64,000 bases of DNA from Octopus sinensis (taxonomy: Eukaryota). Both the position numbers and the translations under genes were made by a program. The notes beneath the pieces were generated by a model, which was not told the DNA's origin, made no database searches, and saw only the letters and a program-made list of their open reading frames with translations. Location: assembly GCF_006345805.1 (NCBI RefSeq), contig NC_043018.1, positions 14,012,001 through 14,076,000 on the forward strand. Reading direction: 5' to 3'. Shown piece by piece: positions 4,663 through 62,258 of the stretch (position 1 is the stretch's first letter; the number at the start of each line of letters is the position of its first letter).

Positions 4663-4880
4663 AAAGCTAATAATCCAAAACAAGAAAAACCAAAAAACAA
4701 AAAAACATAACAACGCGAGGACGTGGAACAAATATAGTATTATTGGACGCTCAGGAAAGAAGGAAAGAGGGAGGGTTTAACGTTTCGAGCGGAGCTCTTC
4801 GTCGGAAATATAGGAGAAGGAAAGCTCCCGAGAAGGGAAGACGGAGGAAAAAAATCGCCAACGGTACTCACGAGGTCACA
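4663..4880 (-). mobile_element. short PLE-derived element carrying a minimal hammerhead (family H1)
   Basis: Homologous and inverted relative to 6880-7082. Flanked by (TA)n and (TACA)n. HHR motif at 4775-4809. Confidence 0.7.
4775..4809 (-). ncRNA. minimal type-I hammerhead ribozyme motif
   Basis: Minus strand reads AUUU-CCGACGA-A-GAGC-UCC-GCUC-GAAAC-GUU/AAAC. Confidence 0.65.
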
Positions 4881-5584
4881 TATACATATATACATATATA
4901 TACATGTATATACATGTATAGACACACACACACACACACACACACACACACACACACACACACACACACACACACACATATATATATATATATATATATA
5001 TGTATATATGTATATATATGTGTGTGTATGTGTGTATGTATGTAGGTATGTATGTTTATAGATATGGCGTCAGTCTATTTGTGCTTTTGTGTCTATAGAT
5101 GTTTGCTTGTTTGTGAGGAGTGCAAATCCCACGCACCAGAACCGAAGAACTATGAAAACATAACAAAGCAGCAGGAAGACATGTTTGTTTCAAATTTCCA
5201 GCAAATTAATTTTGTGTTACTTCAAAGAAAAACTCCATCGTTCAAGTATAATTAATTATTAAAATATCCTCAACTTAATCTAATCTCTGGAACTATCAAT
5301 TTTTTTTTTGTCTTTTACTACATCACTTTTTTAATCCCTTTCTCTTCCTTTCTCTCTCTCTCTCTCTCTCTCTCTCTCCTCTGTGCATGTATATATATAT
5401 ATATATATATATATATATATTATATGTGTGTGTGTGTGTGTGTGTGTGTGTGTGTATGCCCAGATGTATAATACATATATATATATATTCATAGATATAT
5501 ACATATATATATGCATAGATATATACATACAAGCATGTACAATTCTGTTTCTGTTTCCCTAGTTCTCTTTGTCTTTCTATCAAT

Positions 5585-5970
5585 ATATCTATCTGCTAGT
5601 CTATCTATCTTTCTATCTATCAGTCTCTCTATCTATCTATCTATCTATCTATCTATCTATCTATCTATCTATATATCTATCTATCTATCTATCTATCTAT
5701 CTATCTATCTATCTATCTACCTATCTTCCTATCTATCTATCTATCTATCTATCTATCTATCTATCCATCCATCTATCTATCCATCCATCTATCTATCCAT
5801 CCATCTATCTATCCATCCATCTATCTATCTATCTATCCATCCATCTATCTATCCATCCATCTATCTATCTATCCATCTATCTATCCATCCATCTATCTAT
5901 CTATCCATCCATCTATCTATCCATCCATCTATCTATCTATCCATCTATCTATCTATCTATCTATCTGTCT
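5585..5970. repeat. (TCTA)n/(TCCA)n compound microsatellite
   Basis: Seen directly. It explains the 242-aa and 139-aa low-complexity ORFs. Confidence 0.95.
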
Positions 5971-6879
5971 CTGTCAATCTTTCTCTAAACTTTCCATCAA
6001 GCTACCGTTATGCCCACGGCTTATTAACGGATGCCATTTCTATCTTTGCTCACCAATCAATTGATAACTCTTTTAATATACCTGTTTATCTATCTGTAAC
6101 TATCTTCCTATATCTTTCTCTCCCATGTTTCCTCTTTTCTTCCTCTTCTGTCTCGCTCTCATTCCATACATTCTCTCTCTCCCTCTCTCTATTATTAATT
6201 CTCTCTTTCTTTCTCTCCATTCCCTCTCTCTTTAATTAATTCTCTTTTTCTTTCTCTCCCTCCCTCTCTCTATTATTAATCCTCTCTTTCTTTCTCCCTC
6301 CCTCCCCCTCTCTCTCTCTCCCTCTCTCTCTCTCTCTCTATCTATCTATCTATCTATCTATCTTTCGACTCTTTATCTACATCTATTGATGCAAGCAATC
6401 TTCTGTTAATAATTAATGAGATACAGATTATTATCGTCATTAAAAATCGTTCGATGAGAGATAAATTTCTGTAATTAAAATTTTAATATAATTACCTAAT
6501 TAAACGATATTCTCGAGTTGGCATCCGTTGTATTTAGTGCAGCTGATAACTATTCAATCTCACTTTCCTAAGTTTACCTGTGAATACCTGAATTTAGTGA
6601 CAGATAAATTTAGGGCGTGCTAAAAAGTACTGTGTGCGAGTGTGTGTGTGTGTGTGTGTGTGTGTGTGTGTGTGTGTGGTGTGTGTGTGAAGGTGCATGG
6701 CTTGATGTATAGGGAGTTGCACTTACAATTGCAAGATCTACCAAATATTTTTGCTGTTTTAACGGCGTTTCTGCGTTCGAAAATAAATCATCTTATTTGT
6801 ATCTTACAATATACATTTCAACGCTTATAAAAGGCAAATGCTTGTTTATATTGATATACGCGTAGTGTATATATATGAT

Positions 6880-7082
6880 CTCTTGAGCACCACCAGCAAA
6901 AATATTTTTTTCCTCTGTCTTCCCTTCTTGGGATCTTTCCTTCTCCTTGTTTCCGACGAAGAGCTCCGCTCGAAACATTAAACCCTCCTTCCCTTCTTTC
7001 CTGAGCGTCAAATAATACTTTAATTGTTCCACGTCCCCGCGTTGCTTGTTTTTTTTTGTGTTTTCTTGTTTGGATTAAATTT
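6880..7082 (+). mobile_element. short PLE-derived element, family H1
   Basis: Second copy of 4663-4880. Flanked by short TA and by (TA)n. Confidence 0.7.
6949..6983 (+). ncRNA. minimal type-I hammerhead ribozyme motif
   Basis: GUUU-CCGACGA-A-GAGC-UCC-GCUC-GAAAC-AUU/AAAC. Stems I and II are perfect; a G-to-A change at 16.2 is consistent with CpG decay. Confidence 0.65.
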
Positions 7083-7152
7083 ATATATATATATATATAT
7101 ATATATATATATATGGGTATGAGTAAGTATCTCATTTACTTCTTTGCCACAT

Positions 7153-7208
7153 GTATCACTGACGAAGGGAGGGTTCTTTTTGAACTAACCCTGAAATCGG
7201 TCCGATAT
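7153..7208 (+). ncRNA. type-I hammerhead motif in a ~230-bp element (7115-7345) flanked by (TA)n
   Basis: GUAUCA-CUGACGA-AGGG...CCCU-GAAA-UCG-GUC/CGAUAU. Confidence 0.65.
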
Positions 7209-60048: not shown

Positions 60049-60406
60049 AGGCACAAACGTGGTTGTGTGGTAAGAAGTTTGCTTCATAACTACATGATTC
60101 CGGGTTCAGTCCCCCTGAGTGGTATTTTCGACAAGTGTCTTCTAATTTAACCTCGGGCCGTCCAAAGCCCCGGGCTGACCAAAGTCTTGTGCGTGGATTT
60201 AGTTGACAAAAATGAAAGAAGCCCATTGTATATGTGTGTATGTGTGTGTGACTTCACGTCCCATAGCCAAGTGGTTCGGCGAAACTGACCGATAAAACAA
60301 ATACCAGGCTCCCCAAATGATAGTATTGAGGTCGATTCATTCGACTCAAAATTGTAGAAGGCGGTGCCCCAGCATGGCCGTATTATAATGACAGAAACAA
60401 GTAAAA
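60049..60406 (+). mobile_element. diverged SINE family A
   Basis: Head GTGGTTGTGTGGTAAG; tail GGCGGTGCCCCAGCATGGCC...GAAACAAGTAAAA. Confidence 0.8.
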
Positions 60407-60474
60407 GGTAAGATTTATAACTGTTCATCCATCTTTTGCCTTGTTATGTGTGTATGTATGTTTTGCGTGTGTTA

Positions 60475-60644
60475 GGAGGAGAGGCTTAAGTCGATTGTAT
60501 CGACCTCAGTTCTCAACTGGTACTTATTTTATCGATCCTCAAAAGAATGAAATGCAAAGTTCACCGCGGCGCAATTTGAACTCAGGGCATAAAGACGAGC
60601 GAAATGCTGCTAATTATTTTGCACGACGTGCTAACGATTCTGCC
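60475..60644 (-). mobile_element. diverged SINE family B
   Basis: CTGGTACTTATTTTATCGATC...GTGCTAACGATTCTGCCA. Confidence 0.75.
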
Positions 60645-61092
60645 ATATGTATATGTGTGTTTTTGTGTGTGTGTGTGTGTGTGTGTATGTGTGTGTGTGT
60701 TTGTGTGTGTGTGTTTGTGTGTGTGTGTGTGTGTTTGTGTGTGTGTGTGTGTGTGTGTGTGTGTGTGTGTGCATACATATTAGCATGCATTCTATATGAC
60801 CTAAAATATAATGTAACTATACGAAAATATATAGAAATACAACCAAAGTGTCTCTTAATAATGATAAACCTGCAAATTTTTTGGAACTATTTTCTCCATA
60901 TTTGCTCCTGACTTCATTGCTTTCAAGTATTTCGGTCAATTACACCTCTATAAATATTACTTTTGCAGTATTTGTCTATGCTTATTCGTTGGGTTAACTA
61001 ACAACTACTAAGATTGGAACGAATGACTATGAAATATCATCCAATTATTGCATGAAATTAAACTATTGCTCATAAATTTCGTTTGTACAAAT

Positions 61093-61638
61093 CAGTGGTT
61101 CTCACTATTTGATTCCAGATTATGGCTAAGCAATTAAGTACCAGAAACGTATGTCCATTTATAATTATTTCGACATATTTACACTTTGAACTGTTTTTTT
61201 TTTTCCAGCCAATTATATAGCATGTGTATATGCGTGTGTTACATCGGAGGTGTGGGGCGTTAAATAGATTACATCGACCCCAATCTTCAACTGGTACTTA
61301 TTTTATCGACCCCGAAAGGATAAAAAGCAAAGTGGACTTCAGTGGAAAATCTTTTTAATAGTAGTTGATATGAACGTTAGTTTCTTCATTTCTCCAGTCG
61401 TTTCACATCGTTTAGTTCAGCGGTTCTTATGGACCTCTTTTATTCTTATTTTACTTAGATGGACCCATATAGCCATTCGACTTTTAAAGAGATTGGAATT
61501 TTATAAAAAAATGTATCGTATGAAAAAAAAACTTTGTATATTGTGGAAATATAACTGATTTATTCTGCATAAATTTTAACAACAAAATCTTATATGGACC
61601 CTCCTAAGGGTCATGTGGGCCCCGGTTGAGAAACACTG
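61093..61638. mobile_element. old hAT (Charlie-like) MITE containing a SINE B fragment (61255-61346)
   Basis: Termini CAGTGGTTCTCA and TGAGAAACACTG, with ATGGACC sub-repeats. An 8-bp TSD is not recognisable. Confidence 0.5.
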
Positions 61639-61919
61639 GAATAGAAAGAAAGGAAGAGGGTAATATAGAGAGACAGGGGTAGAGTTAGTGCACTTACTTG
61701 GGTACGCAATGTGTAAATGAAAGCTACACTTGCACTCATAATGACAGAACCAAAAAGACGGCGAGCCTGGCGGGGAATAATCTATTATTTTTTTTTCTTT
61801 TTGAAAGTAAATTGGTATTTATTTTATTATTCATGTAACCAGCAAGAAATTTGATAAAAGTTAAATAATATCTTTTGTATACATTTCCTGATATTTCTCT
61901 TTGGGTAAATATCAGGAAA

Positions 61920-62258
61920 CAATTGCAGCGTGGAAGGTGTTTGTAAGTCATTTAAGAAACACACGAAAGCCGTTCAATTCACTTTAACATTTAAGTTTAA
62001 TTTGACAAAATATTTTCGTCGCTATAAGACCGCGACCTGTTCACTGACAAAAATCTCTGCTGCACGGATTTTTGTCAGTGAACAGGTCGCGGTCTTATAG
62101 CGACGAAAATATTTTGACAAATTAAACTTAAATGTTGAAGTGAATCGAACGGCTTTTGTGTGTTTCTTAAATGGCTTACAAACACCTTCCACGCTGCAAT
62201 TGTTTTCGTTCCAGCACACGATCTCAGATCAAATCACTTGCTATGCAAGTACATCTCC
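61920..62258 (+). mobile_element. young palindromic PLE-type element with 15-bp TSD and variant hammerheads
   Basis: Arms at 61917-62055 and 62067-62205 are near-perfect inverted repeats. GTAAATATCAGGAAA occurs at 61905-61919 and 62259-62273. Confidence 0.85.
62071..62121 (+). ncRNA. hammerhead-fold motif with G3-C8 swapped core
   Basis: UUUGUCA-GUGAACA-G-GUCGC-GGUCUUAUA-GCGAC-GAAA-AUA-UUU/UGACAAA. Mirror copy on the minus strand at 62001-62051. Confidence 0.65.

Follow-up and report, generated by a model that had tools for sequence, protein, structure and literature searches.

The stretch of DNA analysed here, hereafter the window, covers 64,000 nt at 14.01-14.08 Mb of the chromosome-scale contig C22 of Octopus sinensis, whose genome comprises 2.72 Gb. 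It has a GC content of 35%, is crowded with microsatellites and carries short repeats with hammerhead ribozyme motifs, a 5'-truncated copy of a young Penelope-like element (PLE) and fragments of other mobile elements (Table 1). The hammerheads had been noticed in an original prediction made from the sequence alone, which largely holds as a whole, its list of motifs being partly confirmed. With a probability of about 80%, the window contains 5'-truncated or non-coding copies of approximately 12 hammerhead elements that end in (TA)n, one of them a copy from the Hydra clade of PLEs and the rest likely users of a borrowed enzyme.

Hammerheads were searched with a relaxed type-I descriptor that accepts C-G, U-A or G-C as the 3-8 pair, U or C at position 4 and an optional base after A9 and before G12, and that requires at least 3 bp in helices I and II and a palindromic helix III. 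Seven motifs of the window are intact by this descriptor, with cores at 4805 (-), 7159 (+), 15042 (+), 27341 (+), 37803 (+), 44043 (+) and 62078 (+). In 50 local dinucleotide shuffles of the window the mean was 0.02 matches (maximum 1), and the reversed window gave none; a strict descriptor found 3 motifs against 0.04 in shuffles. In 1.94 Mb of genomic sequence, 219 matches compared with 1 in one shuffle, helix I being required only to 3 bp. The predicted excess over shuffled sequence was thus borne out. Altogether, 248 matches in all genomic loci compared (approximately 2 Mb; designated L) group into 40 clusters at 80% identity, in which the 3-8 pair is C-G in 32, U-A in 7 and G-C in 1. Covariation was assessed by permutation across clusters, where pairs demanded by the descriptor are circular as evidence; position 4 of helix I, which the descriptor leaves free, forms a Watson-Crick pair in 19 of 23 coarser clusters (null 6.0), and all four pair types occur. 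The earlier statement that stems differ between families yet keep pairing is supported by this, and the number of element families, put at eight or more, came to 13. The window had 387 Rfam matches, and the 150 that were listed included no hammerhead family; on six carrier loci no family reached gathering score, which is uninformative for minimal motifs. As a set, the motifs of the window are genuine type-I hammerhead folds, about half of them decayed.

Among the 19 full sites that had been named, seven are intact, ten are damaged copies and two, at 11378 and 59856, found no support. One of two presumed half-motifs (49183) is indeed a truncated 3' half, while the other (37703) turned out to be an internal hairpin of a 362-nt unit. 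Damaged sites were judged by eye and then against relatives, except 27615, for which none was found among the genomic loci compared. The density of one motif per 3 kb is correct inside the window if damaged copies are counted, but overstated four- to fivefold for the genome at large. Systematic sampling of the genome (95 samples of 10 kb, 950 kb in total, of which 580 kb were from contigs C1-C19 and 370 kb from C20-C30) gave 26 matches, 13 in each contig group (shuffles 0.5 and 0.4, respectively). Intact motifs per 100 kb number 10.9 in the window, 6.5 in the adjoining 200 kb (13 matches), 3.5 in C20-C30 and 2.2 in C1-C19, so that the window lies 4-5 times above the genome mean. Extrapolation to the genome yields roughly 50,000-100,000 descriptor-intact motifs, compared with about 9,000 in Xenopus, where a different descriptor was used (Cervera and de la Pena, 2014, PMC4209133).

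The derivation from PLEs is direct for one carrier. The segment at 43388-44165 is a copy of a young PLE of the Hydra type, 97.5% identical to full-length copies in L111-L115; its hammerhead is predicted to cut after 44116, its 3' end lies 52 nt beyond the cut and (TA)n is found on both sides. In L112, a 778-aa frame lies between two hammerheads that are 2863 bp apart, accompanied by an inverted truncated copy. The encoded protein combines reverse transcriptase (RT) and GIY-YIG nuclease within one open reading frame (ORF), showing YRDD and GIY-YIG-like motifs, DKT, and CxxC and CxH around the E and N residues, and without CCHH. It has at least 150 matches in the genome at 97-100% amino acid identity, and its family alignment matched a canonical RT and GIY-YIG PLE protein of the same genome, itself with an RVT_1 match, at a profile probability of 97.3% (E 1.9e-11). 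A PDB sequence search with the alignment gave nothing useful. The loci L112-L114 present a partial tandem with pseudo-long terminal repeats (pLTRs), an inverted 5'-truncated copy and an optional tail (ends at +52 and +204 from the cut site).

The Hydra clade includes Hydra-1_Obim of Octopus bimaculoides, which has been listed with a hammerhead and a (TA)n target (Craig et al., 2021, PMC8557442). As described there, members of the clade share with the present family a short single ORF, a C-terminal GIY-YIG domain without CCHH, the DKT, CxxC and CxH motifs, a canonical 3' hammerhead, the (TA)n target and inverted truncated copies. Motifs, hammerhead and target thus match those of the clade and point to a placement within it. 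The L112 protein differs in that no linker cysteine is present and RWK reads RWL; furthermore, it has pLTRs whereas Hydra-1_Obim is listed without, and its hammerhead is unlike the one listed for O. bimaculoides (PMC8557442). A CxCx4-7C linker precedes the nuclease in 109 of 111 nuclease-bearing homologs, and the other two carry 4-5 cysteines. The 60 residues ahead of the nuclease in the L112 protein contain 0 cysteines and therefore no CxCX5C linker of the Hydra clade, and a 57% identical sister family (L118) is likewise devoid of a cysteine linker. An element that has the linker may mobilise the linker-less family in trans. Hydra-like coding sequence also occurs in at least four other families (L118, L092, L131, L041), which are 30-70% identical to the L112 protein and two of which have hammerheads of their own. 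In a further copy (L111:6564-6815, -, contig C20) the 5' end of the element is exchanged in frame for about 80 codons of a K319L-like PKD domain (PF22352, E 2e-6); it is bounded by (TA)n, has an open frame of 854 aa and was likely formed when copying switched templates between the element and a host mRNA.

The other carriers are non-coding. The unit of family G is 362 nt long, its arrays comprise 2-7 units that are 95-100% identical, and 20 of 20 copies carry an intact U3-A8 hammerhead. Having a complete hammerhead in consecutive non-coding units, the family corresponds to a non-LTR (non-long terminal repeat) retrozyme by sequence. Every unit, including that of the window (37703-37750, +), also has, upstream of its intact motif, another hairpin that resembles a hammerhead but is out of register, and the unit may have arisen by fusion of two hammerhead repeats. 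A sequencing run guessed to be of RNA returned the family as a single 392-nt contig (362 plus 30 nt), which circle and array would give alike and which was not used as evidence. Families C and D have units of approximately 470-480 nt in partial tandems of 1.1-1.7 units; 17 of 25 copies of family C have an intact hammerhead, and family D normally has one additional base at each side of helix II. Families A, B, H and J are monomers of about 200 nt nearly throughout, H and J often as inverted pairs, and no multi-unit hammerhead array was seen in B, H or J (20-30 loci each). The descriptor is passed by 25 of 30 family A copies. Next to one family A monomer stand six 190-nt units that are 86% related to it (L024:1884-3046), and at L023:1093-1868 a 365-nt direct repeat joins family A with an inverted family B end.

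Core variants were encountered in two of the monomer families. In family B, a sister of A, position 6 is occupied by U in 17 of 18 copies collected without query bias and in 29 of 29 parsed copies (of 30) of a query-biased set. The window copy at 15042 is the sole A6 copy among the 18, so that its status as intact is true by the descriptor while it represents a lone variant in a U6 family, which as a family lacks A6. Changes at position 6 lead to low activity (A6C, PMC3088659), and family B may be ribozyme-dead. It is the commonest of eight families counted in the 950 kb, with 9 insertions (J 6, A 4, G 3, H 3, C 1, D 1, Hydra 0). Family J is young, with 99% identity across copies, a G3-C8 core and 22 of 25 copies intact; an engineered G3-C8 double mutant was partly active (PMC11167929). 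A short inverted match between its ends had suggested a miniature inverted-repeat transposable element, but inverted duplications and a variable 5' edge, the latter known from a query-biased search only, fit PLE-type copying better. A genome search with the 3' part of J, in which common words are skipped, gave no match. In family H, 2 of 20 copies are intact, and intact copies also occur in L351. Its assignment to the end of the second PLE of the window (see below) was rejected, as it neighbours just one of the three full-length copies of that element and occupies a TA tract of its own there.

The carriers have an integration signature in common: they end in (TA)n on the 3' side, their 3' ends lie at fixed internal sites, and they are 5'-truncated and form inverted pairs or partial tandems. 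Among 46 descriptor matches from the systematic samples, the adjoining 200 kb and the window, (TA)5 occurs within 250 nt on the 3' side in 29, compared with 15.7% expected (p 5e-13), and on the 5' side in 8, the polarity expected if the 3' end is primed at the target. The claim that carriers abut (TA)n stands for 13 of the 19 full sites, where a (TA)n tract is reached on the 3' side after no more than about 180 nt (distances of damaged sites taken by eye); it fails for 11378, 26834, 39801, 59856 and the 62001/62071 pair. The 3' ends of the Hydra family fall at two places relative to the cut site, 24 at +47..63 and 18 at +204..208, and TA follows in all 42; the other 10 of the 52 block ends are internal breaks, one of them at +21, and L031 and L032 are duplicates. 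In family G, 58 of 59 ends are at +174..178 or +235..241, and family C has 15 short, 9 long and 1 other (n=25). Since these fixed sites lie downstream of the cut, the inserted RNA was uncut there. The 5' ends of family G are spread across the unit. A 5' end defined by the cut site, as in an R2-like use of the ribozyme, was rejected, because 1 of 59 ends is at +1 and one at -2, with about 0.8 expected by chance. The hammerhead does not define the insertion ends.

A further regularity was found in inverted pairs of families G and Hydra, which combine a short and a long end in 25 of 28 cases, two short ends in 3 and two long ends in none (permutation p 1.5e-5). The pairs were tallied by hand, and the count omits one edge-cut G pair, five Hydra insertions with an arm ending elsewhere and a short-long pair in L057 that was noticed after the test. 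The two arms in L298, like those in L309, each extend beyond what their partner covers, so that fold-back copying is ruled out there as the sole source of inverted arms and both were likely primed on RNA. Similar features are known from other PLEs: a tail is present on one of two inverted pLTRs (Arkhipova et al., 2013, PMC3846280), and the Poseidon element of Anolis uses two internal RT starts 3' of its hammerhead on an uncut template, the protein-assisted hammerhead not being required for in vitro insertion (Frangieh et al., 2024, PMC11167929). The octopus families resemble these in having two start sites that give an optional tail and an uncut RNA template. Short and long ends are 63 nt apart in G, about 85 nt in C and 152 nt in Hydra, compared with 30-40 nt in Poseidon (PMC11167929), and the short-long rule has been put into numbers here.

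A mechanism may be proposed on this basis. By analogy to the anole element in vitro (PMC11167929), the RT-GIY-YIG protein would bind the RNA and nick AT-rich DNA, and reverse transcription would start at one of two internal sites 3' of the hammerhead, +52 or +204 in Hydra and +175 or +238 in G. Copying would run back for a variable length, often beyond one unit, and in inverted insertions the two DNA strands would likely be primed at different start sites, which is what a dimeric protein would bring about. The most likely task of the hammerhead is to cleave transcripts of several units, in dimeric form or assisted by protein, yielding unit-length linear or circular RNAs, and solo genomic copies would mostly be silent, decaying passengers. 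The minimal PLE hammerheads do not cleave as monomers (PMC4209133), and a PLE hammerhead needs the PLE protein (PMC11167929). A more tentative extension, to which we give rather less than even odds, concerns the linker, which has been suggested to mediate TA targeting (PMC8557442). An octopod Hydra branch would have lost this zinc-finger linker yet still target (TA)n in every natural 3' end. Either the nuclease would account for the targeting, or the nicked TA primer would pair with TA-like words at the two RNA start sites, one used per strand by a dimer; this enzyme would drive tens of thousands of short passengers including the G3-C8 and ribozyme-dead U6 families.

Several observations weigh against the PLE-based reading. 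Pfam gave 0 matches for the Hydra-family protein or 13 aligned homologs. PLE coding similarity is absent from all 11 non-coding carrier stretches, and PLE coding sequence lies upstream in 5 of 41 hammerhead clusters, some of these being chance neighbours. For the non-coding carriers, the derivation from PLEs proposed in the original prediction consequently rests on the common integration signature, as does mobilisation in trans. Two PLE types of a rotifer were found not to cross-mobilise each other (PMC3846280). Family J abuts TA in 9 of 25 copies. The copy sets of the families stem from top-40 genome searches, which are biased to young copies matching the query over its length, and long ends are favoured by the second query used for family G; the latter bias makes the absence of long-long G pairs harder, not easier, to explain. 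On balance, the non-coding families likely depend on a PLE enzyme.

The short families could instead be true retrozymes, whose arrays cut themselves into circles ligated by RtcB that serve rolling reverse transcription, with the ribozyme needed for spread, unlike in the anole PLE. Family G gives this possibility its substance: it has one intact hammerhead per unit, its insertions range from 0.1 to at least 7 units with 5' ends anywhere on the unit, and subfamily variants are often common to all units and both arms of one insertion, which fits a circle or a linear multimer. Animal retrozymes of 170-400 nt form circles (PMC7229834). An uncut multi-unit transcript would yield the same pattern, the abundance of family B despite its U6 core speaks against a need for cleavage, and A, B, H and J are nearly all monomers. 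We regard a retrozyme mode of spread as possible but somewhat doubtful. It is improbable that the hammerheads are functionless relics hitchhiking in PLE ends, with cleavage unselected. Insertion of hammerhead mutants is normal in vitro (PMC11167929), Naiads thrive without canonical motifs (PMC8557442) and family B has spread with U6; the compensatory stems, three types of 3-8 pair in 40 clusters and the paired position I.4, however, point to selection on the fold in most master lineages.

As the seven intact motifs lie within 64 kb and the one at 7159 could form a 4-bp helix III alone, intact solo copies might cleave the pre-mRNA of a host gene located here and thereby regulate it; the original prediction had considered cleavage of nascent RNA, provided that the locus is intronic. 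Such a regulatory role is very improbable. No host exon was recognised in 264 kb by a Pfam search of 105 long frames, which returned just transposon domains; the predicted pairing of helix III in the monomer is at most 0.12 for the five motifs able to form one, the other two being unable to; the decay of copies resembles that of neutral repeats, and no same-strand intact tandem pair exists within the window. Cutting of nascent host RNA is unlikely here. Chance matches in AT-rich, repeat-rich DNA may explain sites 11378, 59856 and 37703, which were not upheld, but virtually no credence can be given to chance for the set as a whole, which the shuffles refute.

Table 1. Hammerhead carriers and other features of the window (relatives in L loci in brackets).
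Feature	Position	Strand	Details
5'-truncated Hydra-clade Penelope-like element	43388..44165	+	coding part 43388-43821, with broken GIY-YIG end (43445-43821), CxxC and CxH, without CCHH; 3' UTR with intact C4 hammerhead core 44043
Family G, 362-nt tandem unit	37369..38007	+	1.4 units 37503-38007, inverted arm 37369-37505; U3-A8 hammerhead 37803, predicted cut after 37831
Older relative of family G	39213..39434	-	78-85% identity; hammerhead part absent
Family A monomer, ~210 nt	4670..4880	-	minimal C4 hammerhead at 4805
Family A copy (site 6949)	6876..7081 (5' boundary approximate)	+	helix III mismatch
Family C, part of ~479-nt non-coding unit	7114..7357	+	intact hammerhead 7159, 4-bp helix III
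Family B monomer	14994..15162	+	A6 copy passing descriptor (15042)
Family B monomer (site 58231)	58168..58405	+	U6, family norm
Damaged hammerhead carrier (site 26834)	26793..26970	+	U3 opposite G8; one relative (L309, 69%) with compensatory stems
Family D, 1.2 units of ~479-nt non-coding unit	26975..27568	+	hammerhead 27341
Damaged hammerhead (site 27615)	27592..27720	-	A at position 8; helix I 6 bp, palindrome 8 nt
Decayed hammerhead carrier (site 31608)	31556..31809	+	(TA)n end; one relative (L147, 64%) with canonical core
Decayed long-loop hammerhead (site 39801)	39790..39890	-	true core ~80 nt further 5', near 39880; relative L027 intact
Family H inverted pair	48720..49036	both	both hammerheads damaged: 48756 (-), G at 13; 48882 (+), G at 6 and C at 16.1; (TA)n at both ends
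Inverted stub (site 49183)	49087..49236	+	3' half of hammerhead-like family; relatives in L105, L132, L134, 0 passing descriptor
Family H copy (site 49435)	49396..49581	+	insertion ahead of core
Family J inverted pair	61917..62260	both	62078 (+) intact; 62001 (-) helix I mismatch
Hammerhead-like core, unsupported (site 11378)	11380..11460	+	helices I and II not retained in relative L126
Unsupported site 59856	59850..59900	-	core and helix II broken; relative not found
Second PLE fragment	29268-29990	+	CCHH nuclease, CxxC linker
Non-LTR element, 3' end	28966-29301	-	restriction-like endonuclease type
SINE-like family 1	2695-3183, 21809-21981, 23039-23424, 27771-28147, 41331-41690, 45948-46135, 57981-58157, 60049-60250		beside (TA)n; one inverted pair
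SINE-like family 2	127-481, 9792-10346, 19920-20193, 25287-25684, 32003-32245, 51218-51827, 59093-59332, 60478-60646, 61222-61347		internal duplications
Three adjacent open frames	23812-24981	-	107-153 aa, GC-richer stretch, no Pfam match
Open frame	34614-34913	+	no Pfam match

Apart from the hammerhead carriers, the window contains a fragment of a second young PLE, which we take to be Neptune-like, with at least 150 matches in the genome. Its relatives in L351-L353 have an 811-aa frame and a long upstream frame, and no descriptor hammerhead was found at the 3' end in three full-length copies. The neighbouring non-LTR fragment is similar to a 789-aa frame in L111. Two abundant families resembling short interspersed elements (SINEs) are present, the first of them without a descriptor hammerhead. 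The frame at 34614-34913 presumably resembles the C-terminus of a mariner transposase.

Hammerheads of metazoan PLEs, as described by Cervera and de la Pena (2014, PMC4209133), share with those of O. sinensis the type-I fold, the palindromic helix III, the extra base after A9, the U3-A8 variant, the presence of many families per genome, the predominance of solo motifs, associated with truncated PLEs, and the opposite-strand pairs; natural families with G3-C8 or U6 as found here are not mentioned in the accessible part of that paper. The listed Hydra hammerheads (PMC8557442) often carry one additional base at each side of helix II or a helix III of odd length, as do families D, C and H. The non-coding units of 170-480 nt with one type-I hammerhead, occurring as monomers to approximately 7-mers, are also like animal non-LTR retrozymes, for which a PLE origin has been proposed (Cervera and de la Pena, 2020, PMC7229834; Li, Clavereau and Pollet, 2026, bioRxiv 10.64898/2026.07.22.740005), and family G, known here from DNA alone, fits their definition by sequence. 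Unlike retrozymes, the carriers of this genome are dispersed and TA-targeted, with PLE-type inverted arms and two 3' ends.

The system itself has been published, octopus included, and is unusually abundant and varied in this genome. A literature search on octopus or cephalopod hammerheads and the Hydra linker, with some supplements outside its reach, returned only PMC8557442 as relevant. Neither the loss of the linker nor the short-long rule nor the families with U6 or G3-C8 cores appear in the literature found, several supplements lying outside the search; they are possibly new. In Octopus vulgaris, a recent repeat annotation comprises 893 unclassified, recently active SINE families, hammerheads being unmentioned in its main text (PMC13282606); some of these families may be hammerhead carriers of the kind described here. 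With about 40 hammerhead clusters in 2 Mb, young intact coding and non-coding copies lie side by side, and the linker-less family offers a test of the published idea that the linker directs microsatellite targeting. The natural core variants C4, U3-A8, G3-C8 and U6 make it possible to test directly which purpose the hammerheads of PLEs serve, and if the linker-less reading is true, a single genome would permit a family-by-family test of the need for the hammerhead.

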